A stretch of 64,000 nucleotides of DNA from Raillietiella orientalis (Eukaryota), in NCBI GenBank assembly GCA_036172245.1, contig JAYWIR010000075.1, forward strand, positions 62,001 to 126,000, read 5' to 3'. Position numbers and translations under genes: made by a program. This document shows, piece by piece, positions 1-44,461 of this stretch; position 1 is the first letter of the stretch, and each line of letters starts with the position of its first letter. The notes under the pieces were generated by a model. The model saw only the letters and a list, made by a program, of their open reading frames with translations, was not told the DNA's origin and did no database searches.

Positions 1-355
1 TACGCAAAAACGCCTTCTGAGCGGGATTTCTCACGAATCTTGCTTCCGAAAGGCGCTCCTGAGATCGGGGAAGAGGAGAAAAAGTCCCTTGACGAGTCTT
101 TCACGATGGGCGAGATCTTCTCGGCCATCGGAAAGCTCAAGAGGCGAAAGGCTCCAGGGGAGGACGGCCTGTCCGCGGAGTTTTATCATACTTTCGCGGC
201 TGAGCTAACCCCCCTGGTACATCAACTCACCTTGCTGCTACGCGAGGCAGGTGACGTTCCCGCCTCGTTTCGTTCGGCAAAGGTGCGGCTTCTCCCTAAG
301 GGAGGAGATCTGAGGAGCATGAACAACTGGCGTCCCATCACAATAGTGAATGCGG

Positions 356-370
356 ACGCCAAGTTGATAG
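356..370 (+). repeat. Target-site duplication of copy Z (partner at 4756-4770)
   Basis: Exact 15/15 direct repeat ACGCCAAGTTGATAG; the host reading frame DAKLIA is restored on removing the insert. Confidence 0.95.
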
Positions 371-1058
371 TTGCCACCCGGTCACGCCGGGGCGTTTATT
401 AAAAATTCTCTTTGATTCGTGGTACGAGGCCCCACTACGGCCAACTCAACTGGACCTGCCGGGTCGCCGGTACGCAGACCGGCGCGACTCTCCTCGGCAG
501 CGGAAGGGGGTGGGGGAAAAAACAAAAAGAAAAATAAAACATAAAAACAAAAAGATTTAGGAGGATTGGGGAGGGATCACTGACCACTGGGAGGAGGGTC
601 CATCCTTCGCAGGATGCCCTCGAGGTCCGTCCGTATAATTCCCAAGTGGGGCCATCTGGTCACAATCCGCAGGTAGCGGACTGCAAGTACGACTGCATCC
701 CTGTCGTGGCTCGGTCTTCCGACGTTGCTCCAGCACGTCACAATCCCGCGTACGCAGCAAAGTGCAGCCAGGGTAGCGGCTGGACGCAGGGCATCATGCA
801 CGAACAGAAGCCGAAAAACGTCTCTGGGCTGGCTGCCCTCCTGGATTCGTAGGGAGGCACGAAGACGTTCCCACAGGGGTCGGAGGGCAGCACAATCAAC
901 AAGGAGGTGGGGGAGAGTTTCCCGTTCCCCACACCTGATGCAGGTAGGATCTACTCGACCCCTGGTCCAGTGGTGGCGGCGTGCGTTGCAGGGTAGACCC
1001 CAATGCAACAACAGAAGCGCCGACTCCTGCCACTTCAGGGGGAGGATCCTAGAACCAA

Positions 1059-4000: not shown

Positions 4001-4667
4001 CTTTCGACATGCGGAGGGTGACTCCCGTGAGGTGCGTCACCACGGAGCGATCCTCCGTTACCGGGAAAACCTTTCGGCCTTCCAGTGTGATTGGCGTATT
4101 CAGAAGATGTTGAGCAAGGCTTGCATTTCTGCAAGTCACCTCCACCCGTTGACCACCACTCAACACGGAAAGACCTTCCAGGTCTTCCTCTTTTACGTTC
4201 AACCGCTGCAACTCCCTTTCGAAGTTGCGAGCGGTGTTCCCGACAAACAGATTGCCTACCTTGTATATCAGGGACGGCTTGTATCCCTGCTCCAGGTAGG
4301 CTTTCTGCTCGGCGAGGGCTGCAGGAGATGGGGCTGCAGCCACTGAACTCCAGGTCTTCGGCGATGCCGAAGACGCATTCGAGGGTGCAGGTGCTCCCTT
4401 TTTCAAGGAGGCGGTTGCGCCCTTTTCCAGGGTTGCGGTTGTCCCCTTTTTCAAGGGGGCGGTTGCACCCTGTTCCAGCGGGGCTTTTGCCCCCTTTTTC
4501 AAGGGGGCCTTTGCCCTCGCTTCCGAGGCGGCGGTTGCCCCCTTTTTCAGGGGTGCGGCTGCCGTCGCCTCCGTGGGGGCGGTTGCCCCCACCTCCGTGG
4601 GTTGGGGAGAGGAGCAAGCCTCTCCCCCTCCTATATCCATCGCGGTGTCCTCAGGCATTTCTGCCAT
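1059..4667 (-). CDS. Fused ORF1 (gag-like, CCHC knuckles)-reverse transcriptase polyprotein of copy Z
   Basis: ORF 1059..4700 (first ATG at 4667): CGHCDATGHLKKRC and CFHCGEKGHLRKVC knuckles, then directly the RT motifs (DLHKAFD, GIRQGDSLSP, YADD, KYLG). A frameshift near 1070 separates the C-terminal CCHC segment (577..1074). Confidence 0.85.
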   Translation of the reverse strand: MAEMPEDTAMDIGGGEACSSPQPTEVGATAPTEATAAAPLKKGATAASEARAKAPLKKGAKAPLEQGATAPLKKGTTATLEKGATASLKKGAPAPSNASSASPKTWSSVAAAPSPAALAEQKAYLEQGYKPSLIYKVGNLFVGNTARNFERELQRLNVKEEDLEGLSVLSGGQRVEVTCRNASLAQHLLNTPITLEGRKVFPVTEDRSVVTHLTGVTLRMSKADVQEELGKYGTVHALWTKPNVFQSYGRLFSGMAGARVTVHENGGLPHKLDVGNETVDVWYVGKPKYCGHCDATGHLKKRCPHIQCFHCGEKGHLRKVCPKREPPAPAALKKAKGKRAGATEKPAKAPVRRNPQPDPEPVQQTTVVESTDDAEKSEGWQKAKPKAKKTKKTEDSTAEPATSPLNRRQRRALIRECSVALERVDVPETATGGDIPRVDADDNAITEGEPSVQTEGEPRDALAAIDEAAFQQAAEELAAELADRRLAEYRAGAERQAWQSGSPSLLDDQGREHSAPARIRHLVRRYYSSLYAREPPDQDASRRLLPNGAPTIKEEEKESLDEPFTTGEILAGIKRLKRRKALGEDGLPAEFFQCFAAELAPLVLELTRLIRDEGDVPASFRSARVRLLPKGGDLRKLSNWRPITIVNTDAKLIAGLWASRLGKVANSIISPQQTYAVPGRSMEANHFFASTWFHVQSSEEKEEGRIGSPALGASAGQGQDSQVGKGALAIAVDLHKAFDCVDQDLLLELLGRMGFPPSLLTYLRSCWRSALINISFRGQMAYGVPVRRGIRQGDSLSPLLFSTYFELVLRAYRVTFAPLQSSCPGTPAVAAYADDLLLLLPMSTPAKVVGDFFDLLSRGTGLTVNRAKSTVVPVGAAWAGQPDWVRLGIPSARCLKYLGVPLRDYSPAKAWSGCLQKVETAIGPFLEDKFLLPERAAVWNAFAAPILRPLLFVCPVPRELKKRTKDLLRIALWGRGRPRVPVKDLCAPRRDGGLGLLTMERVEIQLRWRTLAIAAKLWSTPWCVPARLLASRVSGTEGLASYLLCRGRKIKRCGLLLGRMATLAKENGWMVCSPANSSACLQETAGTWAKINQKNGEMWNCLRRGAYSRCTLRKILQCPARSTWAETTPLATAMPFLRRALSSSRKPRWQVSCRIAGKEKLISGWATGELADASTPSVQPRGLQRWGELLGIQPDDLKWFRY
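4395..4586 (-). repeat. Coding minisatellite, 8 x 24 bp (ATAPLKKG-like), in ORF1 of copy Z
   Basis: ATAPTEAT AAAPLKKG ATAASEAR AKAPLKKG AKAPLEQG ATAPLKKG TTATLEKG ATASLKKG. Confidence 0.9.
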
Positions 4668-7114
4668 TGGACACCGCAGATGCTTCACACACAAACACAA
4701 AAGAAACCAAACGCTTTACACCAGGCGCGGAGGAGCGCTACAAAAACACTTCCGCACGCCAAGTTGATAGCAGGGCTATGGGCTTCGCGTCTGGGGCAGG
4801 TGGCAGAATCCGTAATTAGCCCGGAGCAGACTTATGCTGTTCCCGGGCGATGTATGGATGCCAACCTCTTCTTCGCAAGCACATGGGTGCACCTGCAGAG
4901 AAGAGAGAAGAAAGGGATAGGGAAAGTCGGAAACCCCACATTGGGGCCGCCAGCCGGGCTGACAAGGGACCATGGGCGGGGAAGGGGGCCTTAGCGCTCG
5001 CAGTCGATCTCCACAAGGCGTTCGACTGTGTAGACCAGGAACTACTCTTGGAGCTCCTGGGTCGCATGGGCTTCCCACCCTCCCTGATTTCCTACCTGCG
5101 CTCTTGCTGGCGGAATGCGATGATCACCGTCTCTTTCAGCGGTCACAAGGTGTATAGCGTGCCGGTGCGGCGGGGCATAAGGCAGGGAGATAGCCTCAGT
5201 CCCCTGCTCTTCAGCACCTACTTTGAGCTGGTGCTGAGAGCGTACAGGGTGACTTTGGCCCCATTGCCGAGTTGGTGCCCCGGCACGCCCGCCGTAGCAG
5301 CGTAAGCCGACGATCTTCTGCTCTTGTTGCCAATGTCCACCTCGGCAAAGGCGGTCGGAGACTTCTTCGATCTGCTCAGCCGCGGGACCGGACTGCAGGT
5401 TAACATGGGGAAGTCATCGGTTGTGCCAATAGGTGCGGCGTGGGCAGGGCAGCAGGACTGGGTCCGTCTGGGGATCCCACGGCGAGGTGCTTCAAGTACC
5501 TTGGTGTGCCGTTGGGGGACTACTCCCCTGCGGAAGCGTGGTCCAGCTGCCTCCAAAAAGTCGAGACGGCGATCGGCCCGTTCCTGGAAGGCAAGTTTCA
5601 CTTGCCGGAACGGGCCGCGGTTTGGAACGCCTTCGCGGCCCCCATCGTCCGCCCCTTGCTTTTTGTTTGCCCCCCCACCGTGGAATCCAAGAAGAGGACG
5701 GAGGACCCCTTCCGTATCGCCCTTTGGGGCAAGGGGAGGCCCCGAGTCCCACTGAAGGACTTGTGCGCTCCGCGTCGGAACGGCGGTCTTGGCCTCCTGA
5801 CGCTGGAGCGCGTGGAGAAGCAGCTGCGGTGGCGAACCCTCGCCATCGCAGCGAAGATGTGGAGCACCCCTTGGTGCACTCCGGCCCGCCTCCTGGCCAG
5901 CCGTGTGTCCCGGTGCGATGGACTCGCGTCTTTTCTTCTGAGCCGTGGCCGGAAGATGCGAAGATGCGGCCTACTACTCGGGCGCATGGCAACATTGGCC
6001 AAGGAGAACAGCTGGATGGTTTGCTGCCCCGCCAACTCCCCCGCCTGGCTGGAGGAGAATATTGGATCGTGGGCAGTGGTTAACCAGAGAAGCCACGAGA
6101 CGTGGAATCGTCTCCGATGCAGCCCCTACGCCCGCTGCACGCTGCGGAATCTCCTGGAGAGTCCAGCAAGATGCACGTGGGCAGAGACGACCTGCCGAGC
6201 TACGGCGCTGCCCTTCCTGAGGAGGGCACTTCACAGCAGCCGGACGCCAAGGTGGCAAGTCTCCTGCTGCATCGAAGGACGCGAGAAGTTGATCAGCGGC
6301 TGGACAACAGGAGAACTGGCCGACGCCACGACCCCGAGCGTCCAGCCGCGAGGATTATGAAGATGGGGCGAGCTGCTCGCCATCCCTACGGATGTGCTGA
6401 AGTGGCCCCCGGTATTAAAGGAATCCAGGATCCTGCCCCTTAAGTGGCAAGAGTCGGCGTTGCTTTTGTTGCACTGGGGTCTACCCTGCAACGCGCGCCG
6501 CTTCCACTGGACGAGGGGAGCTGTGGATCCTGCGTGTGCCAAGTGCGGGGAGCGGGAGTCTCTCCCCCACCTTATTGTGGATTGTGCTGCCCTTCGACCC
6601 CTTTGGGAACGGTTCGGGACGACCCTCGGGCTCCCTACGGGCAGCACCCCCAGAGACGTACTTCGGCCCCTCTTCGTGAAGGACGCACTGCAGCCAGCCG
6701 CAGCCATCGCAGCCTTGTGCTGCGTCCGTGGCATCGTGGCGGCATGGAGCGACGCCAATAACGAAGGAGTGGGTCCACACGCGAGGGATGTCATCCCATA
6801 CGCCCAACGCTTCATGCGGAGAGCTGCCGGATGGCCCCAACTGGGGAATATGCAGACTGACCTCGAGGGCTTCGTTCGACGGATGGGCCCTCCCCACAGC
6901 GACCAGTGATCCCTTCCCCGTCCTCCAACTTCTTTTTGTTTGTTTCTTTTTATTTTTCTTTTTGTCTTATCCCCATCCCCCTTCGCTGTCGGGGAGTGCC
7001 ACGCCGAGCTGCGTCCCGGTGTCCCGACAGGTCGCGTGTTTACGGCCGTGGTGGGGCCTCGTACCACGCATGTAGAGTTTTCAAATAAACGCCCCGGGCG
7101 TACCCGGGTGACAA

Positions 7115-9847
7115 CGCCGAATCCCCGAGGCAGACGTTGCACAGGGAACTGTTCGCAGAACTCCCGGACCGAGTCCTTAAATAGGTCCCAATCCGCGAGA
7201 CTCTGGAGGGTGACGCCTCGCAGGAATTTGCAAAGATGTTCTTTCGCTCCTGACAGGCGCGTCCAGTCCCCTGGCATACGCCAATCCCTGGATGGCGGTC
7301 CCTTGTCGCGCGGGCGCATCTCGAATAATAACCGGGAATGTTCCGACAGCGTCGATCCAAGTGTCCCTCGTTTTCCGACCCGTGTGCACAGGTCTTCGTC
7401 GAGGAAGACGTGGTCCACGCTGCTGACCATCCCGCTTATTTCTGTCAACAAGTTGCGCGCGCTCATGGCGGCGCACAACTCGTTGATCGCGTTCCCCTGT
7501 GCTGCGGGCTGATCTGAGAGCAGACGGACGTTGAAATTCCCTGCTATCAGATGCGCCTTTCGCACGTCCGCGTCCACCAGCCATTCGCGCTTCAAGGTTT
7601 CCAGTAACCCGTTGCGCTGCTGGTATCCCTGTTTACCGCTAGGAGCGTACACATTGGTGACGATGAGGTCGATCGAATCGGACCATCTGAGAATCAGTTG
7701 GCCGATCCGTCCGTCGTCCCCAAAGCGCACGCCCTTCACGGCCGCGTTAATGGCTGGCTTTGGGAAGAACGCGACCCCACAAGTGTTGCGGGCGCCGCAT
7801 CGTCAGTACAACCGCCCTCCCTCGATTGTTTCGATCTGCTGGGCGTCTTTTGCGGTGATCACGTGGATCTCTTGCAAAAGCACCAGGTCGAAATCTCGCA
7901 AGGTGGCGGCTGTATCTCGTCTGTTTCCGTCGTCGCGCAGCCCGTTAACATTCCAACTGGCCGCGCGGATCCGACGGCGACAGGCGAGTCCAGATGTTAT
8001 TCCTGGGAACCTGGCGGGGGTGCTCCCGCCACCTTTTGGGGCGGGTCGCTGGACGGGGTTGGCGTCTTGCCCACCAACTCCCCATCCTTCTGTCGTGCCG
8101 ACGTCTCCGGCTGCCCGTGCGAAGGGGGTGTTGTTCGTACCTGTTGGCCCACATCCATTGGTGCGGGTGGTTCAGGTTCGGCGGTTTCAGAGAGCATTGC
8201 TGACCCCTGGTTACCCTCCTCCATTGGAGTCGCCTCCTCGTCGGCTTCCGCACGTGGGTGATGCCCGACTTGGGCTCCCACGCTGCCATCCACTGGTTCT
8301 TCCACCATTGCATCCCCCTCGCGCGGAGGCGGAATGCACCTTCGGGGTTTCTGGGATTTTCGCCCCGCTTTCCTTGGTGGTGCTTCCGCAGAGGAGGATG
8401 CACTTCCGGCCTCCCGGTCCGACTCACCTGCGGGGGCCACTTTAGCCGCTGCCGGCCTACGCAACCCCTTTCGCGAAGGGTTCTCGCGTTCGGCAAGCGT
8501 TGCCGCAAGCTCCTCGGCGGCCTTCTCGAAGGCTGCGTCCTTGGTTTCGGCGATTTGGTCGTCCGGCTGACCCTCTTCGCAAGCAGGGGGTGGGTTTTCG
8601 CGCGCATTCGTCGCGGCGGGAAAATCGATCGAAGCCGTATCGCCTCCGGTGGTGTCGGCGGGAACGTCAATGCGCTCCAGCGTAACCGTGCATTCTCGGA
8701 GAGTTTTTACGCGCGACACGGATTTAACTTTTGTTCCGTCCGCCGCCTTCTCTCCTTTCTTCGGGACATGCTTGTCCTTTTTCTCTTTTTTGGCTTTGAC
8801 TAGCTGCCAGCCCTGTTCTCCCTCTGCGGTTTTGGTAAGATTTTTCTCAGATGCCGCGCTTGGAGCTTGGGTTATTGGAAGCTTTTCTCGGCCAGTTTCA
8901 CGGTTTTCCAATTTTTCTTTCCCCGCGCGTTTCCCTTGCGCCTTTTTGGCGGCCGAGGAAATTGGGGTGGGGCGTTTAGGGCACACGCGACGGACGTGTC
9001 CCTTCTCCCCGCACAAGTAGCATACGATGTTTGGACACCTCTTTCGGATGTGTCCGACCGCATCGCAGTAGCCGCAATACCGTGGCTTGCCCGCATACCA
9101 GAGGTCTACCGGTTCTCCCGCGACCTCAAGTTTGTGGGGTAGCTTCGCTTCATCTTTTGGGGTTACGCGTGCCGCGGCGAGGCCCCCGAAGTGGCGTCCG
9201 TAGCCCTCAAAGATTGTGGGCTTCGGCTACAGCGCGTGTACGTCCCCGTACTTACTTAATTCTGCTTTTACGGCAGTGCGCGTCATGCGCTTGGATATTC
9301 CTGTCAAGTAGACCACTACCGAGTGGTCCATTGACACCGGGAAGATCTTACGGCCGTCCATGATCAGCGGGGTATTTATAAGGCGATCGGCTAGGCTGAT
9401 GCTCTTGCACACCAGCTCAACCCGCTGCGCCCCGCTGAGCACGCACAGACCTTCCAGATATTCCTCACGGACATTAGCATTTTGAAGCGCTCTGCTGAAA
9501 GAGCGCGCCGTGTTCCCTTCAAACAAAGGGCCTACCTTGTATACAAGCGATGGCTTGTATTCAGAGGCCCGATAGGCGGCTTCCTCGGCCATGGCCTCCG
9601 CACTGGGGGCGGCGACCATTTCACTCCAAGTCTTCGCCGGCTGCGAAGACGTTCCAGGGACTATTGCCCCCATAGCTGTAGGTCTTGTGGTAGGACTTGC
9701 CTTCTCTACAACTACATCCATCGCAGTGTCCTCTGGCACGGCTGCCATCGGACACCGTCGACCCACACTTTACACCTGACTACACTGAAAACTCCGGCTG
9801 CTTCCCAGACAAGCGCTGGCGGAGCGACCAAAAAACACGTACACCCA
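7115..9847 (-). mobile_element. Tx1/L1 copy B: 5' end, ORF1 (with stops) and APE endonuclease, broken at the GFG site by copy A
   Basis: ORF1 from ATG ~9748 to TAA 7997 with CCHC knuckles. EN motifs SWNVNGL, LQEIH, NVYAP, AGNFN, VDHVF and SEH. Confidence 0.92.
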
Positions 9848-12838
9848 CACCGGCTTTAGGCGAAGGCGTGAGGAACGACAGAAACTATCTCCAGGCCCGT
9901 CGTTTCTCCAACAAGCCCGACGTCCGTCGCCTGGCGGAAATCAAGGCTGGAGCGGAGAGGCAGGCCTGGCAATCCGGGTCTGCCTGCTTGCTGGACGAAG
10001 AAGGCCAGGAGCACTCATCTCCAGCGCAGGTTTGCCGCATTCTGCGGGATTTCTATTCCTCCCTTTACGCGCTGAGACCACCAGAGCGCTCCTCTGCCCA
10101 GCGCCTGCTGCCAGAGGGTGCTCCCGCGTTGAGGGAGGAAGAAATAAACATCTTCCTCCAAGAGTTCACGATGGCGGAGATAATCTCCGCCATTACTGAA
10201 TTGAGAAAAAACAAAGCACCAGGGGAAGACGGCCTGCCAGCTGAATTCTACCAACACTTCGCGGCAGAGCTGGCCCCCCTGGTGCTAAACCTATGTATGC
10301 TGATCCGTGAACGTGGGGATGTCCCCAACTCGTTCCGGTCAGCTAGAGTACGTCTCCTTCCGAAGGGAGGAGACTTGCGCAACGTTGGCAACTGGCGTCC
10401 CATCACTGTAGTGAATGCGGACGCAAAGTTGCTCGCCAAACTGTGGGCTGAGCGCCTGGGACGGGTTGCGGACTCCGTGGTCAGTCCGGAACAGACATAC
10501 GCTGTTCCCGGACGAACCATGGAGGCCAACCTGTTCCTCGCCAGCACATTCTGGCAGTTGCAACAACGCGAGGCGCAGCTACGTCGGGAAAGTCCTGGAC
10601 TCTCCATTGACAAGGGGGAGGAAAGCCGGGAAGAAGATGAGGCGCCTGGAGCCCTTGCGGTCGCAGTCGATTTGCGTAAAGCTTTCGACTGCGTCGACCA
10701 GGAGCTCCTTCTAAAGCTCCTAGAACGCTTAGGATTTCCGGCCGTCTTTCTGGCCTACCTGCGCTCCTGCTGGCGCTTCGCGCTCATCAATATCAATTTC
10801 AGCGGCCGGCACGTGTTCGGCGTGCCGGTTCGTCGTGGCATCCGGCAGGGTGACAGCCTCAGCCCCCTGCTCTTCAGCATCTACTTTGAGTTGGTGCTGA
10901 GAGCATACAGTGAGACTTTGGCAACCCTGCCGAGCTCGTGTCCCGGCACGCCTGCCGTGTCGGCCTATGCCGACGATCTTCTGCTCCTGCTTCCCGGGTC
11001 CACCCTGGCATCGGCGCTCGAGGATTTCTTCGAGTTGCTATACCGTGGGACAGGCCTCCAGGTGAACAGGACGAAGTCGTCGTTGCTTCTCACCGACTCG
11101 ACGAGGGCCGGACGGTCGGACTGGATCCGCTTAAGGATCCCCACGGGCAGATAAATCAAGTACCTTGGCGTTCCGTTGGAAGACTTCTGCTCTGCAGAAG
11201 CCTGGTCCGACCGTCTACAAAAAGTGGAGCTGGCGATCGGCCCGTTCCGGGACGGCAAGTTTCACTTCAAGGAACGGGCCACGGTATGGAACGCTTTCGC
11301 GGCCCCTCTCCTTCGCCCCCTACTTTTTGTGTGCCCTACCCCTTACCAAATTAGGACACGGACCAGGGGCCTCATACGGAAAGCCCTCTGGGGCAACCGG
11401 AGGCCCCGCGTCCGGCTCAAAGACTTGTACGCTCCACGCAGGGACGGTGGACTTGGTCTCCTGACGTTGGAGCGCATGGAGCGACAGCTCCAATTCAGAA
11501 AACTTGCCCTTGTGGCAAAGTTTTGGACAGCACCCTGGTGTGCACCCGCAAGACTCCTTGCTCACAGGGCAACCGGCTGCTTTGGATTGACTTCAATCCT
11601 GGTAGCCAACTAACGCAGCCTGAACCATTGTGGTTATCAGCTGCGGGACTTGGTTGCCCTGATGAGAGACAACCCTTGGATCTCCTGCATCCCAGCGGAC
11701 TGGACTACCTGGCTTCAGGAGTCCGTTTCCGCATGGGCGAAGATCAATGGCACCAGTGATGAGGACTTCTCCTGCCTCCGCAGAGGGAGGCACGCTGGTC
11801 AGCCACTCCAGGAGATCGTTTCCAACCCACGGAAACTTCTGTGGGCTTCCTTCACCCCCCTTGCTCCAGTGCTGCCCTCCCTCAGGGAAGTTCGGGACAG
11901 CCACCAACAGGCATCGTGGGAAGTGTCTTGCCTCATCGGAGGCAGGAAAAAATCACTGAAGGCGTGGACGCCGAGGGAACTAGCAAACGCTAGTACCCCG
12001 AGTGTCCCGCCGAACGGACGTTCACGCTGGGGCGCGCTGCTCGGTATACCTCCGGAGGAGGTGAAGTGGCCCCCAGCGTCATGGGACAACGGCACCCTTC
12101 CCCTGCAGTGGCAGGAGACGGCGTTGCTTCTGCTCCACTGGGTACTTTTAAGCAGAGCACGCATGTCTCGCTGGACATCGGGGAATGTGGATGCTATTGT
12201 GCAGAGTGCGGGGAAAGGGAGACCTTCCCCCACTTGATTCTGGAGTGTGTTGCCCTCCGCGAAATGTGGGACAGACTCTCGTCGATCCTCAACATTCCGG
12301 AGGGTGACCCGAAAAATTTATTCAGACGCCTTCTGACGCGAGACGGCTTGCCAGCCTCCGGGAGCGTAGCAGTGCTCTGCTGCATACGCGGTATCCTGGA
12401 GAAGTGGACCGCGTCTAGGAGAGGAAGGACCAGCCGGAATGCCATCCACTGGGCAGCGATCTCCTTGGAGAAAGCGTGCCGTTGGCGCCGACTTCAAAAA
12501 CATTTGCCGGCACTTGTTCGCATCCGAAACCGGATGCAAAGGCCTGCTCACGGCGCACCGTGATCCCCTCCCTCCCTCTCCCTCCCCAGAAACATTGCCC
12601 TCCAGACGTTTTTCTTTTTTTGTTTTTGTTTTCTTTTATTTTTCCCGTCCCGGCGCCAGTGAAGGACCTTATCGGCCTCCGGGTCGGTAAGGACAAGTGC
12701 CACTGAACGTTTATGAACTTCTAGACATCCTGAACAGCAAATGAGATTTTAGGTGAAAAAATTCAGACTTTGTTATGGAATTTTTTGTAATCTCAAAAAA
12801 TTTTAATAATAAAAGCCCCGGCTTACCAGGGTGAAAAA
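9848..12838 (+). mobile_element. Tx1/L1 copy C: post-EN linker, RT, C-terminus and 3' end
   Basis: ORF 9697..11154 contains KAPGEDGL, DLRKAFD, GIRQGDSLSP and YADD. Later stops and frameshifts. AATAAA at 12808 plus terminal motif. Confidence 0.93.
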
Positions 12839-14451
12839 CCTGAGCTGGGCTGGAGCGTTCTTGGCCCTGATGGTCCAGCAAGCAGGCCGAGCCTGACTGC
12901 CAGGCCTGCCTCTCCGCCTAAGCTTTGAATTCTGCCAAGCGACGGACGTCGGGACGCCTGGAATACCGACGGGCCTGAAGGTAGGCCCGCTCGTTCCTGA
13001 CCCCATCGCCGAAGCCCGGCGGAAGACGCTCCAGGGGAAACTGGTCGCAAAACTCGCGTACTGAGCACTTCATTTCGTCCCAGTCCGCGAGCGTCTCAAG
13101 ATGGAATCCTCCCAGGAAGGCGCGTAGATGTTCCGCCGCTCCTGCGAGGTGCAACCAGTCCCCTGGCAGGCGCCACGTTTTCAAGGGAGGGCCCTTATTC
13201 CGCGGATGCAACTCGAGAACGAGCCGTGAATGGTCGGACAGCTCTGCCGGGAGCGTTCCTCGAGTTCCCATCCGCGTGCACAGGTGGTTGCCGAGGAACA
13301 TGTGATCGATGTTCCGATCTCTCCCGGCATCACCGGCCAACAAGTTGCGCGCATTCATTGCTGCGCACAACTCGTTGACCAGTTCTGCTCGACTGCTGGG
13401 CGCACCTGCCAGCAGACAGTGGTTGAAATCGCCCGCAATAAGGTGCGCCCGCCGTACGCATGCTTCAGCCAGCCAGTCTCGCCGCAGGGATTCGAAGAAC
13501 GCAGTGCGTTCCTCGGCCCTGTGGCTAGACACCAGAGCGTACAGGTTCGTGACTATGAGGTCGATCGAGTCGGACCACTTCAACGCAAGCTGCTCAACTC
13601 GACCTTCCCCGTCGAACCTCACGCTGCGCAATGCGTTGTCGACGGTTGGCTTAAGCATAAAGGCCACTCCGCAGGAGCGGTCGTTTCCGTTCCTCCACAG
13701 TAGCCGCCCTCCCGCGATTCTTTCGATTTCCTGGACTTCTGCTTTGAGAACGTGCGTCTCTTGCAGGAGCACCAGGTCGAAGTCTCGCAGTATGGCGGCT
13801 ACGTCTCGCCTCTTACCGTCGTCGCGGAACCTGTTGACGTTCCAACAGGTGATGAGCAAGCGGCGGCAGGAGGCGAGCCCACGCGTTGGTGTGTTTATTG
13901 TGGGGTGGAGGCGTCCTCCTCCCTTGCGGGAGGCGCCTCGTTGGCGGCCGTAACGACGGTCGGCTGCTCACACGGGAGCACGTCGTCCACAGCGACTTCC
14001 ATGGGGCTGGCTTCCGAGACGCGGATCGGAGAGGGGTCTCGTGGCGCGACGCACATTGCCTCCTCCTCCGTGCCCGAGGACTTGGCCTCCTCCACCTGCG
14101 GAGGGGCGACCCGTCTCGGGCAACCGGTCTTCTTGCCAGCCTTCCTCTTCGGCACGACAGCGGAAGTAGAACAACCGGCTTCGGTTTCGGACTCGGAATT
14201 TTCCGGGCCCTTCACCGTTGCCGGTCGTCTCAAGGCCTTCTTCTCGGCCTTGGCAGGCTGCCGTAACATGGCTGCCAGCTCTTCCGCGGCCTGCGCGAAG
14301 GTCGCGTCCGTTATACGCGCCGCTTCCTCGCTTTCCGCACCGACGAGCGGCGCAGGCGCAGTGGAAGCGGCTTCATCGATCGGCGCGCAGACGTCCTTCG
14401 CTGGCAATGCCGGAACGGCATTGTCGTCAGCTGATGGTGACGTCACTGCGG
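12839..14451 (-). mobile_element. Tx1/L1 copy D: ORF1 C-terminus and APE endonuclease
   Basis: ORF 12918..13859: WNVN, LLQETH, SCGVAF, NLYA, AGDFN, IDHMF and SDH. Upstream segment AAEELAAML matches ORF1 of copies B and Z. Confidence 0.92.
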
Positions 14452-16250
14452 TTTTCACCCGGATATGCCGGGGCGTTTATTTCGAAAAATAAAAATACAT
14501 TAATTTTTCCAGTGGAGAACCCGAAGGCGCACCACGCCAAAACAGCTTGCTGGTTGCCGGCGCTATGCCGGAGAGGTCCTTCCGATGCGCGGGGGTTGGG
14601 ACAGAAAAAACAAAACAAACAAAAAGTTTAAACACGGGAGGGGATAAATGTTTTAGGGATGGGAGGGCAGGGAAGGGATCACTATGCGCCCGGAGAGGTC
14701 CTCTAGATCCTATTCAGGATCTGGACAAGCTGTGTCCTCTGTGCGCCTAAGTGGCGCCACTTGCATACAGCTCGCACGAATAGGCGAGTCCACCGTAAGG
14801 CGTTGCCAGTTGGCTGACGTCTTCTTCTGGTGGCGTTCCAAGCCGCCACGATCCCTCGAATGCAGCAGAGGATTGCTACAGAAGCGGGTGGGGACAAGGC
14901 GTCACTACAGAAGAGGCGCCTGAAAACGTCCTTGGGGCCGCATCCGCGCAAGTCCAGGATCGCCGTAAGGCGATCCCATAAAGGGCGGATGGCACTGCAC
15001 TCAATTAGAAGGTGGGGGAAGGTCTCTTTTTCCCCGCACCGGTCGCACTGGGGATCCACAGCCCCCCGGGTGGTGTGGTACAGGCGTGCTTTACAGGGTA
15101 AACCCCAATGCATTACAAGCAACGCCACCTCCTGCCATTTGAGGGGGAGGGATCCACTGTTCCAGGACGCTGGGGGCCACTTCATCTCCTCCGGAGATAT
15201 TCCGAGTAGCTCGCCCCAGCGTCGAATTCCGTTGGGCGGGACACTCGGCGTCGCAGCGTCAGCTAGCTGCCGAGATGTCCACGCCTTTATCGATTGTGTC
15301 CTGCCGCCTATGGTGCAGGACACGGTCCATTTCCCCTGCTCGCTACTGTCCCTGGCATTCACAAGGAAGGGCAGCACTGGGGCGAGGGGGGTTATCAAGG
15401 CCCACAGAAGCTTGTCGTGGGACTGCACGATCTCCTGCAGCGCCCAGCGGGCATGCCTTTTCAGGCAAGTGTTCTTTGTGCCCGCCGGTACGTAGATCTT
15501 TTCCCAGGTGGAGACTGACTCGTGCAACCATGCCGAGTAGTTCCCTGGGAGGCAGGAGATCCAGGCGTTCTCCCGTACCACAACGTCCATGCGACGCAGG
15601 AGAAAGCCGCCGTGTGCTTCTCTGCGGTCGCGCGCCAGCAGAAACGACAAAAGTCCGCCGAATCCGCAGGCTCGTTGGGCCAGGAGGCGTGCTGGAACGC
15701 ACCAAGGCGTGTCCCACAATTCGGCCGCGAGGGCGAGAGTCCTGAATCCTAGTTGGAGTTCCATGCGCTCCAGCGTAAGTACGCCAAGTCCACCGTCCTT
15801 ACGTGGAGCGCACAAGTCTTTGAGCCTCACACGGGACCTCCCTTTGCCCCAAAGGACTGTCCTCAGGAAGCCCGCTGCTCGTTTCCGGATAAAATAAGGG
15901 GCGCGGCAAACAAAAAGTACACATCCCGGTACGCAGCACTGACCCCTTAGGCCAGAGGGGGATTGTAGCCGCTAGCGGCGTACGCCCGCAGCTCTGCCTC
16001 GTCGGGTGGGGCTCCGTGGGCCGCCGCTGCCTTAGCAACGGCGGCAAAACTTCTCGCTGGAGGCGAGAGACGACCGGTGGAGGCTTCCACTCCTCCCGAA
16101 GAAGGTCCTACGACGCAGCGGCATTCCTCCACCTCCATTTCTGCGGGCACTGGCTTCATTTTCAAATGAAAAATCACACAACACCCAAAAGGAACAGCCG
16201 CAAAAAACACCAAAGACGGAGCGCAATCATGCACGTCCGAATAATAGGGA
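14452..16250 (-). mobile_element. Tx1/L1 copy E: ~1.8-kb internally deleted copy (5'UTR + ORF1 start joined to ORF2 C-terminus + 3' end)
   Basis: ORF1-like SFAAVA..AYAASGYNPPL (15947-16160) abuts LFVC / DLCAPRKDGGLG...CDRCGEKETFPHLLIEC (14703-15830). Terminal motif at 14452-14481. Confidence 0.85.
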
Positions 16251-16269
16251 GGGCGACTATGGTATAGGT

Positions 16270-18710
16270 GTGGGAGACCAAAGAGTTGCGGTGTCGCCTA
16301 CCTGCTTCGGCCAGCCGTCGAGGCCGCGGCTCGGGGCGTGCGGTTCGACGATCACGGTCGTGTCGGCCAGCTGACTCTCAGGTGGTCCGATTCGATCGAT
16401 CATCTCGTCACGAACGTGTACGCACCGAGCGGCGCGCACCTGATGAACAGGAGGGCGAGGAAAGAGTTTTTCCTTGATATCCAACGCGACTAGCTGACCG
16501 AAGCAGGCGTGCGAAATGCCCATCTGGTTGCAGGCGATTTCCACGTTCGCCTGAAGCCAGATGGGCAGAATCACGAGCGTGACCTGATCAACCAGGTGTG
16601 CATGGCGGTGCACACCTGTAATTTCTTGGCCAGTGCACCGGGGATGGAAGAAAGCATCGACCACGAGTTTCTTGGCGAGCACCTATGCCCTCGCGTGAGC
16701 AGGCGCTGCAAGTTACCGTGCGAGATGTCCGACCATCGCCCGAAAGTTCTCTAGATCCATCCGCGCGACAGGGGCCCCCCCTCGTCAGCGTGGCGTCTCC
16801 CAGGGACTGGCTGAACGTCCAGGACGCGGTGGAATATCTCCGCACGTTCATACGGAGCTTAAGGAGGCGGACACTCCAGGATTGGGACCGCTTCAAGCGG
16901 TCGGTTTAGGAGTTCTGCGACCGGTTCCCTCTGCACCGCCTAGCTACGGGTTTTGGGACCGGGGTCCGTAACAAAGGAGCCTATTTACAGGCCCGTCGTT
17001 ACGCCAGGACCCCCGATATCCGCAGGCTGGCGGAATACAACGCGGAAGCCGAGAGGCAAGCCTGGAAGTCCGGATCGGCAAGCTTACTGGACGATCAGGG
17101 CCAGGAGCACTCGGCACCTGCCCAAATCCGCGGCCTGCTGCGGAGTTACTACTCCTCCCTGTATGCCAGGGCACCTCCGGAGAGGAACGTCTCACGACTC
17201 CTGCTTCCGGAAGGCGCTCCAGCGATCGGGGAGGAGCAGAGAAAGACCCTCGACGAGCCTTTCACGATGGACGAGATCCTCTCGGCCATCGGAAAGCTGA
17301 AGAGGCCAAAGGCTCCAGGGAAGGACGGCCTGCCCGCGGAGTTTTATCAAACTTTCGCGGCTGAGCTTCCCCCCCTGGTACAGCAACTCACCTTGCTGAT
17401 ACGCGAAACAGGTGACGTTCCCGCCTCGTTTCGTTCGGCAACGGTGCGGCTCCTCCCTAAGGGAGGAGATCTGAGGAGCATGAACAACTGGCGTCCCATC
17501 ACAATAGTGAATGCGGACGCCAAGTTGCTAGCAAAGGTTTGGGCAGAGCATCTTGCACGGGTTGCCAACATCTTCATCAGCCCGGAACAGACATATGCTT
17601 TTCCCGGGCGAAGCATGGAGGCGAACCTGTTCCACGCTTCCACCTGGCTAGAGCTCCAACATGAAAGGAGCTTGGTGCGCAGCCGGAATTCCGGTGCGTG
17701 CGCTGGCAAGGGTTCGGATGGTCGGGTGGGGGAGGGAGCCCTTGCGGTCGCTGTCGACTTGCGGAAAGCATTCGATTGCGTCGACCAGAATCTCCTTCTG
17801 GAGCTTCTGTTACGCTTGGGCTTCCCGGCCTCATTAGTGGCCTATCTGCGCTCCTGCTGGCGCGACGCGCTCATCAACGTTTCCTTCAGCGGGCAGACCG
17901 TGCACGGCGTGCCGGTGCGGCGTGGGATCCGGCAGGGAGACAGCCTGAGCCCCTTGCTCTTCAGTACCTACTTTCAGTTGGTACTGAGAGCGTACAGGGG
18001 AACTCTGGCGCACCTGCTGCACGACTGTGCCGGTACGCCGGCCGTTTCAGCGTACGCGGACGACCTTCTGCTGCTGCTCTCTATGTCCACCCCGGCTGCG
18101 GCGCTCAAGGAGTTCTTCGACCTGCTGCATCGGGGAACCGCACTTACGGTGAACAGGGCGAAGTCGTCCGTGATGCCAGTCGGTGCGGCGTGGGCAAGGC
18201 AGCAGGACTGGGTCCGTTTGGGGATCCCCACGGTGAGGTACTTTAAGTACCTTGGTGTGCCGTTGGGGTTTTTCTCCCCTGCGGAAGCGTGGTCCGGCTG
18301 CCTCTAGAAAGTAGAGACGGCGATCGTCCCGTTCCGAGGAGGCAGGTTTTTCCTGCCTGTACGGGCCGAGGTTTGGAACACGTTCGCGGCTCCTCTCCTC
18401 CGTCCCCTGCTTTTTGTTTGCCCCCCACAGAGAGGATAAAAAAGCGTACAAAGCACCTCCTTAGTATCGCCCTTTGGGGCAACGGGAGAGTCGGAGTCTT
18501 CTTAAAGGACTTGCGCGCTCCTTGTCGGGACGGTGATCTCAGCCTCCTGACGCTGGAGTTCGTGAAAATCCGGCTGCGATGGCGAACCCTCATTATCGCA
18601 GCGAAGATGTGGAGCACCGCTTGGTGCATTCCGGCCCGCCTCCTGGCCAGGCGTGTGTCCCGATGCGAAGGACTTGCGACGTTTCTTCTGTGCCCTGGCC
18701 GGAAGAGTCA
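16270..18710 (+). mobile_element. Tx1/L1 copy F: partial EN + RT
   Basis: SCGVAY, NVYAP, AGDFH and SDH; ORF 17267..18307 has the RT motifs including YADD. Confidence 0.9.
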
Positions 18711-21250
18711 CCGCCGCTTCCGTCCGCTCTTGCTCCGGAGAGAAATAGCGGTGGCACGCCCGGGAAGTTCACCGGAGCGTCCAAAAAGGGGTCGGGCGCC
18801 TTTTTGCACGAAAAACGCAAGCCGGCCACGGCGAGCTGATCAGCGGCAAAGGCTAAAAAATTTTTCGCGACCTCAAAGAACCACGCCACTCTGCCCGCAA
18901 CTTCCGGTAAGGAGGTGCAGAAGGCAGCAGTTACGACGGACAAACTGGCCGCCATCGCCGCATCGGAGGCCTTGGAGAGGATGCGGAGGACCCTGGAAGC
19001 CCTCGCGCCGAACCAAGGCAAACCCAAAGGCGACGAGGTTGACTGGACCTTCGTTGGGGAAGAAAGAAGGAGCGGAAACCGCGCGATCCTTCCCACTTAC
19101 CCATACTAAAGGTAGGCGGGTTCAAGAGGCAGCCCCGCGCGAAAGAAGGCGCAAGAAAAAGGCTCCGCTGCCGCCGCGCGCGCCGTCGCAAACACCCACG
19201 GCGAGAGGGTAGCTGCCGATGCCGTAATCCCGAAAGGGGGATCGGCGCCGAAAGCACCCTTCAAGAATGCTGGACATGCTGCGAGCTGCCAGCAGAAGAA
19301 GCGGCAGGCGTAGCGCCCTCCGCGCGCACGGAATTCGTACTCCGAGCTACAGTCCGAAGGCAGCGCAAAGGCTCGCCAAGCCCCGGTCAAGGCCAGGGCT
19401 CCGCGCAAGCCAAAACTTGCCAGGAAAGAGGCTGATGCCGGGAACGGTTCTCGATGCTCCTCGGAGCCCGAGGCAATGGTCCTCGACACCACCCAGCCAG
19501 CCGCGAGAGGCGCGGCGGTGACAGGGAGCTCTTGCGCTCCCCCATCAGCCGTGCTCCCGGCTGATGCCTCGCCGGACGGGGCGAGGAACGCACCTCCATG
19601 TCCATAGCAGCAATGAGCGGACTCGCATATTCTTGTCGCGTCTGAGTGGTTCGTTGGTACGTCAACGGGCTGAAGGACAACGAGAAGAGGCGATTGGTTG
19701 CCAACGTCTTGCGCGACTCCGATCTGGTCCAGCTACAGGAGATCCACGCACTCTCCGAACAGCAAGCGGCCGATCTGGCAGTTCGCGCAGGCGGAACGCT
19801 CCGTTGGAGGGCAGGCTCCCAGAATATCTGAGGAGTGGCATTCCTTGTCCGGGGCAGGGTGGCGAGGGCGGTGCGGAGCGTTTGTTTCGACAAGGAAGGT
19901 CGTGTGGGCCAGCTTGTTCTCAAGTGGTCCGAATCGATCTACTTTGTCTTCACGAACCCTCGCCATCGCAGCGAAGATGTGGAACACCCCTTGGTGCGTT
20001 CCGGCCTGCCTTCTCACCAGCCGTGTGTCCCGGTGCGAAGGACTCGCGTCTTTTCTTCCGTGCTCCGGCAGGAAGATCCGAAGATGCGGCCTACTGCTAG
20101 GGCGCATGGCAACCCTGACAAAGGACAACAGCTGGATGGTTTGTAGCCCCACCAACTCCTCCGCCTGGCTGAATTAGACAGCTGGCACTTGGGCCAAGTT
20201 AAGCTAGAGGAGTGAAGATTCCAGGAATTGCCTGCAATTCGGTCCTTGCGCCCGCCGCACCCTGCGGGAAATACTAGAATTTCCCGCGAGTAGCTCCTGG
20301 GAGGAGACGACCCCCCTTGCTACGGCGATGCCCTACCTCCGGAGGGCGCTTAACGGCAGCCAGAAGCCGAGGTGGCAAGTCTCCTGCAGAATCGCAGGCA
20401 GGGAGAAGATGTTAAGCGGCTGGACAATAGGTGAACTGGCGGATGCCACGACCCCGAGCGTCCAGCCGAGAGGACTTTTGCGATGGGACGAGCTGCTCGC
20501 CATCCCCATGGATGTGCTCAAGTGGCTCCCGGTGTTGCTGGAATCGAGCATCCTGTCCCTTAAGTGGCAAGAATAGGCGCTGCTACTGTTGCATTGGGGT
20601 TTACCCTGCAACGCACGCCACTTCCACTGGACAAGGGGAGCGGTGGATCCTCAGTGTTCCAGGTGCGGAGAGCAAGAATCGCTCTCCCACCTACTTGTTG
20701 ACTGTGCTGCCATCCGACCCCTCTGGGAACGGTTTGGGACGACCCTCGGTCTCCCGGTGGGCAGCCAACCAAGAGAAGTTCTCCGTCTACTCTTCGTGCG
20801 GGACGCCCTTCAGCCAGCTGTAGCCGTGGCAACACTCTGCTGCATCCGAGGCATCGTGGCGGCCTGGAGCGATACCTGCGACGAAGAAGTGCATTTATAC
20901 GCGATGGCTGTCATCTTGTATGCTGTTCGCTTCCTGCGGTGAGCTAGTGGATGGCCCTGTTTGAGAAGTTTGAAAAAGGACCTCGAGGGTATCCCGCTAA
21001 GGATGGACTCTCCTCCCAGTGGACTGCGATCCCTTTCCTTTCCTCCAAAAACTCTTTTTTGTTTACTTGTTTATTTTTCTTTTTGTTTTTGACCCCAACC
21101 CATTCCACTGCTGAGGAGAGTCACGCTGGTCTGCGTACCAGCGTCCCGGCAGGTCTTGCGACATATTGGCCATTAGTGGGGCCTTGTACCACGTACTGCA
21201 TTGACAAATGAAACGTTTTTAATAAACGTCCCGGAGTACCCGGGTGGCAT
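18711..21250 (+). mobile_element. Tx1/L1 copy G: probable ORF1 C-terminus, EN N-terminus, large internal deletion, ORF2 C-terminus and 3' end
   Basis: WYVNGL..LQEIH..GVAFLV..KWSESIYFVFTN joins directly to TLAIAAKMW at ~19955. AATAAA at 21221 plus terminal motif. Left boundary approximate. Confidence 0.8.
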
Positions 21251-22244
21251 CGCCCGCTGCACGAGGCGGAATCTCCTGAAGAGTCCCGCCAGAAGCAAGT
21301 GGGCAGAGACGACCTGGCTTGCTACGGCGCTGCCCTTCCTAAGAAGGGCACTTCACAGCTGCCGGACGCCAAGGTGGCAAGTCTCCTGCTGCATCGTGGG
21401 ACGGGAGAAGATGATGAGCGGCTGGACCATCGGTCAACTGGCGGATGCCACGGCCCCGAGCGTCCAGCCGCGGGGAATACTGAGATGGGGCAAGCTGCTC
21501 GCCATCCCCAGGGATGAGCTGAAGTGGTCCTCAGTGATGAAGAAAGAATCGAGGATCCTACCCCTCAAGTGGCAAGAGTCGGCGTTGCTCCTGTTGCACT
21601 GAAGTCTACACTGCAACGCACGCCGCTTCCACTGGACAAGGGGAGCTGTGGATCTTGCGTGTGCCAGGTGCGGGGAGCTGGAGTCGCTTTCCCACCTTAT
21701 TGTGGATTGTGCTGCCCTCCGACCCCTCTGGGAACGGTTCGGGACGACGCTCGGGCTCCCTACGGGCAGCGCCTCAGAGACGTTCTCCGGCTCCTCTTCG
21801 TGCGGGACGCTCTGCAGCCAGCAGCAGCCCTCGCAGCCCTGTGCTGCGTCCGAGGCATCGTGGCGGCTCCAAGTGAGGCCCACGACGAAAGACATGGCTA
21901 CTACGAGAGGGACGTCATCCCACATGCTCTTCGTTTTCTGGGTAGAGCTACCGTATACCCCCAACTGGGAGAAATGCTGACGAACCTCAAGGACATCCTG
22001 CGAAGAATGGGGCCTCCTCCAAGTGGACCGTGATCCCTTTCCCTCCCTCCAAACCTTTTTTTTTTTTATTTTTTATTTCGCTTTTTGTTTTCTCCCCCAT
22101 CGCCTTCCACTGCCGAGAAGATTCACGCCGGACTGCATCCCGGCGTCCCTGCAGGTCCGGTGTTGTGTGGTCGTGAGTGGTGCCTTTTACCACGTTTTTT
22201 GTAGAGTTTTTCAATAAACGCACCGGGCACATCCGGGTTGGAAA
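21251..22244 (+). mobile_element. Tx1/L1 3' fragment H (possibly the continuation of copy F)
   Basis: Homologous to 6130-7114. AATAAA at 22213 plus terminal motif. Confidence 0.88.
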
Positions 22245-22664
22245 CTCCAAAACCCGCAGGTAGGCAGTGCAGAGGGAACTGTTCGCAGAACTCCTGTACC
22301 GACCGCTCAAACCGATCCCAGTTCTGGAGTGTCCGCAGCCTGAAATTCCGTATGAACGTGCGGAGATGTTCCGCTGCATCCGGAAGCTTCAGCCAGTCCC
22401 CTGGGAGACGCCAAGCTGACGAGGGGGGACCTGTCGCGCGGATGAATCTGGAGTACGATCGGACAATGGTGGGACAGCTCGGAGGGTAACTTGCCGAGCC
22501 TGCCCACGCGATGGCTCAGGTGCTGGTCAAGGAACACGTGTTCGATGCTATCCTCCATCCCCGGTTCACTGGCCAACAAGTTACATGTGTGCACCTCCGT
22601 GCACGCCTCGTCGACCAGGTCGCGTTCGTGATTCTGTCCATCTGGTTTCAGGCGAATGTTAAAG
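22245..22664 (-). mobile_element. Tx1/L1 EN fragment I, broken at the GFG site
   Basis: FNIRL, IEHVFL and EFCEQFPLHCLPAGFG. Confidence 0.85.
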
Positions 22665-25490: not shown

Positions 25491-25506
25491 CGATGCGGCG
25501 ACCGCT

Positions 25507-26270
25507 GCCTTACTTCGAGTTGGTGCTGAGGGCATATAGGGAGACTCTGGCAACCCTGCCGAGCGCCTGTTCCGGCACGCCTGCCGTGTCGCCCTTTGCC
25601 GACGACCTTCTGCTCCTGCTCCCCTGGTCCACCCCGGCGTCGGCGAACGAAGATTTCTTTGAACTGCTACGCCCCAGGACGCGCCTCGAGGTGCACAGAG
25701 AGAAATCGACTATCGTCCCGACATCTGCCAATACGGTGCGAGCCGGACGGCCTGACTGCATCCGTTTGGGGATCCCCACGGCCAGGTACCTGAAGTACCT
25801 GGGTGTCCCCCGTTGGGGGACTTTTGCCTCGCAGAAGCCTGGTCAGGTCGTCTCCAAAAGGTGGAGTCGGCGATCGGCCCGCTCCTGGAAAGCAAGTTTC
25901 TTCTGCCGGAACGGGCCGCGATGTGAAACGCCTTCGCGGCCCCCATACTCCGCCACCTGCTTTTTGTTTGCCCCGTTCCCCAGTTGAAGAGGACAAAGGA
26001 CTTACCTCGCATCGCCCTGTGGGGTAGCAGGGGACCCAGAGCGCCTCCGAAAGACTTATGCGCTTCGCGTCGGGATGGCGGTCTTGGCCTCCTGACGCTG
26101 GAGCGCTTGGAGATCCAGTTGCGATGGCGCACCTTGGCCATCGCAGCGAAGTATTGGAGCACCCCCTGGTGCGTCCTGGCCGCCTCCTCGCCAGCTGTTT
26201 CCCGGACGCAAGGACTCGCGTCTTATTTTCTGTGCGTATTCGCAAGAAACTCCGCCTGTCACAAGTTATA
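25507..26270 (+). mobile_element. Tx1/L1 RT/thumb fragment K
   Basis: YFELVLRAY, FADDLLL, KYLG and DGGLGLL. Confidence 0.85.
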
Positions 26271-43000: not shown

Positions 43001-43416
43001 AAAGGGGAAACCTGAAAAGAAGCTGTCTCGAGATGAGCTCCCATCTTTGCGATCCGTTGTGCTGCACGTAAGATGTGTGCTCCAAAAAGCATGTTAGCGC
43101 TCGCGACTCCGGCCGTGAAGCTGGACAAGAGACCGCACGGAGAGCGAATCGAAAAAGCAAAAACACAAATAACCGTTACATAATAACCGTTTAAACAAAT
43201 AATCATTACAAGACAAAAAACCGTCACCAAGAGGATTAGATATTGGTGACGGAATACAAAATTGGTGATGGCTCCATTACCATAGAGCCGAAATGGTTTT
43301 GTGCGAATAACGTCTTGTAAAATAAATAACTTCCTGTGTTCCAATGAAAAAAATTTTTTTTTTCGGGTTTTCTTTTTTTTGATCTGACTCCAGAACCTTA
43401 CGCCCGGAGTCTTTCA

Positions 43417-44018: not shown

Positions 44019-44039
44019 TATTTTACTGTCCTCTCCATG

Positions 44040-44368: not shown

Positions 44369-44461
44369 CCAGCGCTGCACTCCAACATAGGCCAACCAAC
44401 GTCATCTTGCGGGGGGACTCCAAACTCATGTTTCACCCATTTCTAGGGCATCTATCCTGTA

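Follow-up and report, generated by a model that had tools for sequence, protein, structure and literature searches.

Does a retrotransposon family have a preferred insertion site within its own coding sequence? The question is raised by a 64,000-nucleotide (nt) stretch of the Raillietiella orientalis genome (contig JAYWIR010000075.1 of assembly GCA_036172245.1, positions 62,001 to 126,000 of the forward strand; referred to here as the window), in which positions 1-26,243 form a nest of one GC-rich non-LTR retrotransposon family (LTR, long terminal repeat), comprising ~15 fragments on alternating strands. The nest was resolved through self-BLAST, mapping onto a coordinate reference made of two of its copies (B and C), and tblastn searches using the window's own frames for open reading frame 1 (ORF1), the endonuclease, the reverse transcriptase (RT), and the C-terminal part as queries. 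Elements of this family have a short 5' untranslated region (UTR), an ORF1 that includes a CCHC knuckle, an ORF2 encoding an APE-type endonuclease and an RT, and a 3' UTR without poly(A). An earlier note on this DNA had proposed that the family has a preferred antisense target inside its own ORF2. Here, we report two insertions that end at the same ORF2 base in independent hosts and a third junction that lies 15 to 18 nt upstream of that base.

The two 3' junctions were read directly and aligned (copies are lettered as in the list given further below). At 7114/7115 the sequence reads ...AATAAACGCCCCGGGCGTACCCGGGTGACAA/CGCCGAATCCCCGAGG, and at 22244/22245 it reads ...AATAAACGCACCGGGCACATCCGGGTTGGAAA/CTCCAAAACCCGCAGG. 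In both cases, the left side is a complete family 3' terminus (copies A and H, respectively) and the right side is reverse-complemented ORF2 (copies B and I, respectively). In an alignment of the hosts, in their sense orientation, with the two copies that have no break here (E and D), the last bases of B are GGATTCGGCG/ and those of I are GGTTTTGGAG/; both stop in one alignment column, a single base into the codon that follows Gly-Phe-Gly (GFG). The uninterrupted copies read through this position as GGCTTCGGCG/ATGGGG in E and GGTTTTGGGA/CCGGGG in D. The antisense hosts of A and H are thus broken at one GFG nucleotide, as the earlier note had described, and its placement of the break just past the endonuclease can now be given a measure: the site lies 72 amino acids (aa) past the Pfam endonuclease match and 169 aa ahead of the Pfam RT match, which locates it in the linker between the two domains. 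The motif LP.GFG is common to the translations of B, I, E, and D; a site constrained in this way at the protein level would stay recognizable across lineages that are only 60 to 65% identical.

A third host, copy C, begins at 9848 with CACCGGCTTTAGGCG/AAGG and adjoins the full 5' end of antisense copy B. Its first base is 15 nt before the GFG base (15 to 18 nt, allowing for the alignment of the B and Z 5' ends), in keeping with the expectation of the earlier note that this junction reflects a 15-bp target-site duplication like that of copy Z. The duplication of Z is exact: ACGCCAAGTTGATAG occurs at 356-370 and again at 4756-4770. In the case of Z, priming is by the host sense strand, with the duplicated bases upstream of the nick, and the B/C junction has the same geometry. 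Altogether, five copies in the window contain the GFG site, which is occupied in three (B, I, and C) and intact in two (D and E).

The explanation that we favor, and hold somewhat likelier to be right than wrong, is that the endonuclease of the family has a preferred nick site in the sense strand of its own ORF2, giving antisense insertions with duplications of ~15 bp. The endonuclease would nick the sense strand of a resident copy after ...GG(A/C/T)TT(C/T)GG(C/A)G in the endonuclease-RT linker, and this nick, rather than another kind of break, would supply the 3'-OH that primes cDNA synthesis at the exact 3' terminus of the incoming RNA. Priming on the nicked host sense strand would place the new copy antisense to its host, and a second nick on the other strand, ~15 nt upstream, would create the 15-bp duplication. 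On the bottom strand of each 3' junction, the host sense sequence ...GGCG-3' is followed by the antisense insert starting from its exact 3' terminus, which is the order expected from target-primed reverse transcription at a sense-strand nick. Four 3' termini lie against antisense family DNA, those of Z (in A), A (in B), C (in E), and H (in I), and each is complete, which fits priming at the RNA 3' end. With the start of C, 15 nt upstream, taken as the staggered second nick at a distance equal to the duplication length of the family, one rule covers all three junctions.

This argument depends on the independence of the junctions, since self-BLAST gives a colinear alignment of 6129-7350 with 21251-22478, at 78.8% identity, that runs across the junction, and copies A and H are sister lineages. 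Such similarity would be expected if one ancestral junction between a family 3' end and the GFG site had been segmentally duplicated, or retrotransposed as a composite, with the hosts made different by later gene conversion. This is the alternative that the earlier note had set against its own proposal, and we give it hardly any credence. Hosts B and I agree at only 253 of the 416 positions that adjoin the junction (60.8%), whereas inserts A and H are identical at 792 of 982 positions (80.7%) over ~1 kb, a difference with a Fisher p of 2.7e-14. Host I matches D at 345 of 413 positions (83.5%), and B is closest to E (67.5%). Maximum-likelihood trees group I with D (bootstrap 100), apart from B and E, and group A with H (bootstrap 95); on these values, inserts and hosts differ clearly between the junctions, as the earlier note had pointed out. 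Copy I stays D-like up to the junction itself (43/48 in the final 50 nt). Given the lower identity of the hosts, the discordance of the trees, and the D-like character of I to its end, a single duplicated junction fails; gene conversion between sequences ~61% identical is moreover implausible, and the B/C junction would be a third case outside such a model. In that third host, the insertion is copy B, and B and I are of different endonuclease lineages. On these comparisons, the A/B and H/I junctions arose independently, the same base having been reached in hosts of two lineages. A shared transduced flank at both junctions was also considered; B and I have a local identity of 40/50 in the last 50 nt, and the corresponding value for B and E is 38/50, so the 40/50 represents general conservation of this stretch, and the candidate was ruled out.

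Chance would be helped by the density of the nest (~13 junctions in 26 kb) but is a similarly slight prospect, as is misassembly of repeats. For the 7 family 3' junctions in the nest, which form 21 pairs, and ~11,400 position-and-strand states, our own arithmetic gives an expectation of ~0.002 to 0.006 coincident junctions at a tolerance of +/-0 to 1 nt. The copies flanking each junction are 20 to 40% removed from their relatives, unlike assembler fold-backs, which join near-identical repeats.

In a region consisting almost wholly of this family, repeated use of such a site would build a stack of antisense nested insertions. A self-consistent nesting order can be proposed, I > [D.L.G.H] > [MF.E] > C > B > A > Z, in which each level is antisense to its host and each insertion would separate the endonuclease of the resident from its RT. 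On this order, every missing half of a host would lie left of the window. Directly left of the 5' end of A, it predicts a second copy of CGCCGAATCCCCGAG and antisense B from GFG-15, with the 3' terminus of B abutting a C sense strand that ends ...GGCTTTAGGCG; further leftwards, it predicts the 5' half of C (+), the 3' part of E (-), the 5' part of D (+), and the remainder of I (-). The fragments of the nest are as follows.

1..370, + strand: fragment a, part of the RT (aa 42-171, tblastn), of the D lineage; 93% identical to D over 310 nt

356-370, + strand: right end of fragment a, left copy of the 15-bp duplication of Z

371..4755, - strand: copy Z, with 5' UTR, ORF1 fused in frame to the RT, and 3' end; antisense to fragment a and copy A

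4756..7114, + strand: copy A, from RT aa ~152 to the complete 3' terminus, which abuts B; sister of H in the 3' tree

4756-4770, + strand: left end of copy A, right copy of the 15-bp duplication of Z

7115..9847, - strand: copy B, host of A, complete at its 5' end, with an ORF1 carrying a CCHC knuckle and an endonuclease; at 7115 its sense strand terminates in ...GGATTCGGCG

9848..12838, + strand: copy C, host of B, beginning 15 to 18 nt before the GFG nick position (9862/9863), with the complete 3' terminus at 12838

12839..14451, - strand: copy E, the C-terminal part of ORF1 and the endonuclease; GFG site uninterrupted (13006/13007), broken 169 nt beyond it by the 3' end of C

14452..16245, - strand: copies F (14452-15971) and M (~15972-16245); boundaries near 15971 and 16245 approximate

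16248..18705, + strand: copy D, from endonuclease aa 51 to RT aa ~560-570; GFG site uninterrupted (16958/16959); right boundary uncertain by ~40 nt

18706..19952, + strand: fragment L, an unmatched stretch and then endonuclease aa 1-118; its joins to D and to G are sense-to-sense

19953..21250, + strand: copy G, from RT aa 520 to the 3' terminus, followed by H, tail-to-head

21251..22244, + strand: copy H, from RT aa 616 to the complete 3' terminus abutting I

22245..22664, - strand: copy I, host of H, from endonuclease aa ~150 to ...GGTTTTGGAG; broken at the base at which B is broken; the 3' terminus of J lies against its 5' side

22665..25507, - strand: copy J, spanning RT aa ~31 to the 3' terminus; lineage diverged; 5' end 0 to 5 nt from the break position of E

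25508..26243, + strand: copy K, RT aa 315-556, head-to-head with J; followed by AT-rich non-family DNA

Copy F starts at RT aa 461, includes the 3' terminus, and is joined tail-to-head to E; M comprises a 5' UTR and the start of ORF1 (MKPVPAEME...). The two are probably one element with a large internal deletion, and the 5' end of this element abuts D at endonuclease aa 51. Copy D is the nearest relative of both I and fragment a. At the right ends of D (18705-18745) and K (~26243), the alignment to the family is lost a few tens of nt or less from one ORF2 position (RT aa ~556-570), past which D gives way to fragment L and K to AT-rich DNA. The endonuclease of copy B (7115-7973, -) has IAGNFN and LSEHS where E has IAGDFN and LSDHS, changes at positions that we take to be catalytic in APE-type nucleases; host copy B is probably inactive, judging from these substitutions.

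Several observations weigh against the nick-site explanation. Other 3' junctions of the nest lie elsewhere, namely, at RT aa 171, at GFG+169, and at three tail-to-head joins (F/E at 14451/14452, G/H at 21250/21251, and J/I at 22664/22665), each at an exact 3' terminus; the caution of the earlier note that specificity is not strict was therefore well placed. Outside the nest, three related 3' termini abut non-family DNA. A loose nick pattern, TTNNNNGNNGG[G/C], is commoner on the antisense strands (29 occurrences) than on the sense strands (14 occurrences) of the 25,962 nt compared, and a shared nick motif drawn from five sites was dropped on this account. In each of the three GFG events, at least one junction is missing from the window: the 5' end of A lies beyond position 1, the 3' half of B is displaced, and left of H is the 3' end of G, with no remainder of I. 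Two internal joins (D/L and L/G) are sense-to-sense, and the flanks of Z, considered next, belong to different lineages. All three GFG events, finally, come from one 26-kb nest. The proposed antisense target in ORF2 stands as regards the use of the same base in independent hosts; its scope is this nest, and the flanks of H and Z speak against clean nesting.

Copy Z is the sole insertion seen whole. Its left flank (310 nt) is 93% identical to D and 73% identical to Z, whereas its right flank (720 to 730 nt) is 71% identical to D and 83% identical to Z. The D-Z, D-C, and Z-C identities are constant across the insertion site of Z, and the lineage switch is sharp: fragment a matches D at 60/60 positions in the last full 60-nt window before the insertion and at 38/60 in the window that spans it. 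Gene conversion stopping at the heterology, a recombinant host, or the joining of two residents that had been cut at one and the same site are possible causes. Since the flanks differ in lineage, plain insertion does not account for everything in this nest. One could propose that the endonuclease cuts residents at a few shared sites and that the products are rearrangements between different residents rather than clean nesting, with reverse transcription that starts in one copy being resolved into a second copy that had been cut there. Such a process would accommodate the perfect duplication of Z, with its D-lineage flank on the left and its Z-lineage flank on the right, the missing remainder of I left of H, and the proximity (0 to 5 nt) of the E break to the start of J. 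We nonetheless regard it as decidedly unlikely: the lineage switch at Z is equally well read as gene conversion stopping at heterology, the E/J coincidence is weak, with ~0.18 expected among ~14 internal ends by our own arithmetic, and the GFG junctions in the window do not require rearrangement.

The E/J coincidence itself concerns the break in E (12839) and the 5' end of J (25502-25507), which are 0 to 5 nt apart in homologous position, J lying head-to-head with K. It may represent a second shared breakpoint, one that is weak when taken alone. The start of J had also been considered as the break of E minus 15; realignment placed it 0 to 5 nt from the break, and this reading was rejected.

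The open frame of Z (1059-4715, -) spans 1,218 aa, and its endonuclease is deleted. Because Z lacks an endonuclease and is nevertheless flanked by a perfect 15-bp duplication, it was probably mobilized in trans. The fusion joins ORF1 in frame to the RT linker ~60 nt past the GFG site, at a short microhomology (..GCCGAC/CGTCGCC..), and the C-terminal zinc-finger part is in another frame (high-scoring pair 601-1068; frame worked out by hand).

The arrangement of B and C admits a different reading, in which the GFG site is a hot spot at the level of RNA or cDNA, that is, a recurrent RNA end or internal priming site, and in which twin priming or template jumping produces the junctions by linking the 3' terminus of a resident to cDNA begun at GFG. 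Copy B (position 1 to GFG, inverted) followed by copy C (GFG-15 to the 3' end) has the layout of a single 5'-inverted long interspersed element (LINE) with a short duplication at the inversion point. In the tail-to-head joins F/E, G/H, and J/I, a 5'-truncated copy comes at once after a complete 3' terminus of the same strand; these and the sense joins D/L and L/G would fit frequent template switching and do suggest template switching or rearrangement. Nevertheless, a hot spot of this kind appears unlikely as the source of the GFG junctions. No duplication flanks B and C, the 15 nt left of 7115 being GTACCCGGGTGACAA and those right of 12838 being CCTGAGCTGGGCTGG. By eye, the 3' termini that would act as primers show no complementarity to the RNA immediately downstream of GFG; only 10 of the 15 overlapping bases agree between B and C (by hand); and I is adjoined by the antisense 3' end of J instead of a direct 3' half. 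A recurrent RNA end at the site would also leave unexplained the 15-nt offset of C, which equals the duplication length of the family. A nick in the host sense strand, our preferred reading, places that offset at the second nick.

The tail-to-head joins also look like end-to-end template jumps or tandem insertion, as in Zepp and Cnl1 arrays. A GFG-like sequence at the G/H join proved to be the own sequence of H.

The family as a whole is distinct in composition and only distantly matched in databases. GC content is 57 to 62% across the first 26.2 kb (60% over the nest tiles), versus 34 to 45% across 28 to 42 kb. The endonuclease is N-terminal to the RT in ORF2, and the order endonuclease, linker, RT is seen in copies D and E. 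Pfam searches matched PF03372 (endonuclease) in copy E at 12918-13967 (E = 2.5e-14) and PF00078 (RT) in Z, C, and D (E ~1e-22). The match to PF13966 (zf-RVT) in F is borderline (27.0 bits versus a curated cutoff of 27.5; E = 7.2e-6), and this domain is present in most database relatives. For the zf-CCHC of ORF1, B scores 27.6 bits, above the cutoff of 20.8, and Z scores 18.5 bits, below it; no RNA recognition motif (RRM), a part of ORF1 in the L1 type II/Tx1 layout, was matched by Pfam. The closest of 114 matched database proteins are only 29 to 30% identical to the RT and are unnamed RT proteins from fishes and a frog, followed by L1-like proteins of fungi and plants. From these sequence features, the family can be assigned to the L1/Tx1 group of non-LTR retrotransposons, a narrower placement in the Tx1 clade being putative.

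The 3' UTR of the family ends in AATAAACGCCCCGG..CCGGGTG(R)A(n), a pattern that can also be given as AATAAACG..CCGG..CCGGGTG.A(n). It contains a small invariant hairpin of 5 pairs, with zero covariation among the aligned termini of 6 copies. Copies are 20 to 45% apart and yet retain long open frames, and the CpG observed/expected ratio is 0.78 to 1.10 across all fragments. Long frames and high CpG in spite of such divergence indicate that the differences mostly reflect several coexisting lineages and, to a lesser extent, decay after insertion. Two candidate measures of copy age were dropped: CpG decay is uninformative, with the above ratios found everywhere, and counts of stops and frameshifts (Z 1, A ~3, B 2, and C 3, by hand) give no usable order.

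Beyond the nest, more diverged relatives of lower GC content occur at 42331-44368 (+), 44462-~46400 (-), 47620 onwards (-), 51469-52474, 55455-56529, 58441-58795, and 62684-63082. Some carry the same kind of 3' terminus, and two of these termini are tail-to-tail, 93 nt apart (44368 and 44462). The flanks of the termini at 44368, 44462, and 47620 showed no family similarity above shuffled controls, and no duplications were found there. The DNA that follows the 3' terminus of G (21251-21262, the start of H, CGCCCGCTGCAC) and that following the 44368 terminus (44369-44385, CCAGCGCTGCAC) share the 8-mer CGCTGCAC at nearly the same offset, which may be chance. Pfam gave no match over 14 frames from 36 to 62 kb.

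Wider searches covered metagenomes, protein databases, and reads. A metagenome scan with the 3'-terminus pattern returned 16 loci, none of which (0/16) had family similarity by tblastn or blastn, and a 160-aa query across the GFG site gave 0 matches in protein databases. In one sequencing run (X1; 0.16 of sampled words), 704 contigs were fitted at 80% likeness, comprising 26 at 99% or more, 112 at 95 to 99%, 164 at 90 to 95%, and 402 below 90%. This run gave 449 loose ends and 50 joints; among those listed (6 and 15, respectively), none falls at the GFG positions, a result that is neutral on the finding.

How does this family compare with LINEs that are already known to nest in themselves or to select their targets? 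Among green algae (Chlorella, Coccomyxa, and Chlamydomonas), Zepp and Zepp-like L1 elements are described as targeting their own copies and forming GC-rich nested clusters with many 5'-truncated copies (PMC8226300, PMC3446292). The present nest resembles them in its clustering of same-family copies (~15 fragments at 60% GC in window positions 1-26,243), and its three tail-to-head joins resemble the tandem 3'-end arrays of Zepp. In contrast, the passages of those sources on Zepp portray nested tandem arrays of mostly 3' ends and describe no defined ORF2 nucleotide and no antisense rule (PMC8226300, PMC3446292). Cnl1 of Cryptococcus is likewise reported to prefer insertion into its own copies and to form nested arrays (PMC9942834, PMC12810828). 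However, it is R2/MoTeR related and inserts in tandem orientation near telomere repeats, and its precise specificity is stated in the relevant passage to be undefined (PMC12810828), whereas the family here has an APE-type endonuclease, antisense insertion, and an internal ORF2 site.

Target-specific LINEs of the Tx1 clade are APE-type elements whose endonuclease selects a defined sequence, several at fixed positions inside other transposons, according to the account in PMC4494074. These include Tx1L in Tx1D, Tx1-Mar in Mariner-N4_AMi, and Tx1-9_AMi ~300 bp into Harbinger; Keno is found in U2 snRNA genes, and Kibi and Koshi occupy microsatellites (PMC4494074). The family described here is likewise an APE-type element with repeated insertion at a defined sequence; it differs in that the target is its own coding sequence and the specificity is loose. 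Compared with 5' inversions of L1 formed by twin priming, B and C share the inverted 5' segment, the direct 3' segment, and the short overlap; they differ in the lack of a flanking duplication and of primer-RNA complementarity, and the same breakpoint recurs in the unrelated lineage of I without a direct half. For the hallmark of a sequence-specific LINE, independent insertions at the same target nucleotide, the nest provides two exact 3' junctions and one 5' junction.

Self-nesting LINEs without a defined site (Zepp and Cnl1) and Tx1 families that target transposons are thus already known, and site-specific LINEs are known to find safe targets in other transposons or in host genes that are conserved and multicopy. 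In the literature covered, which did not extend to the junction detail of the original Zepp papers, we found no LINE reported to favor an antisense site within its own ORF2. Should the preference be real, and hold across the genome, such a site would extend what is known of both self-nesting and target-specific LINEs. Targeting of the family's own ORF2 may be a by-product of sequence preference in a region almost wholly made of this family rather than a strategy. A stronger version, which we put forward tentatively and consider doubtful, is that the family has evolved antisense homing to a protein-constrained linker of its own ORF2, such that every new copy disables a resident, host genes are spared, and islands of LINEs renew themselves. 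On this version, the family would be a site-specific LINE whose multicopy "safe harbor" is the family itself, common to lineages only ~60% identical.

Support at present amounts to three junctions in one nest. If the interpretation is correct, the family would offer a short natural DNA target for studying how an APE-type endonuclease reads sequence, and a defined, strand-specific nick site in its own coding region would link the site-specific LINEs with the self-piling Zepp and Cnl1. Such a site would also provide a mechanism for the formation of LINE-only islands and, since a resident is lost at every insertion, would imply that lineages compete directly with one another.

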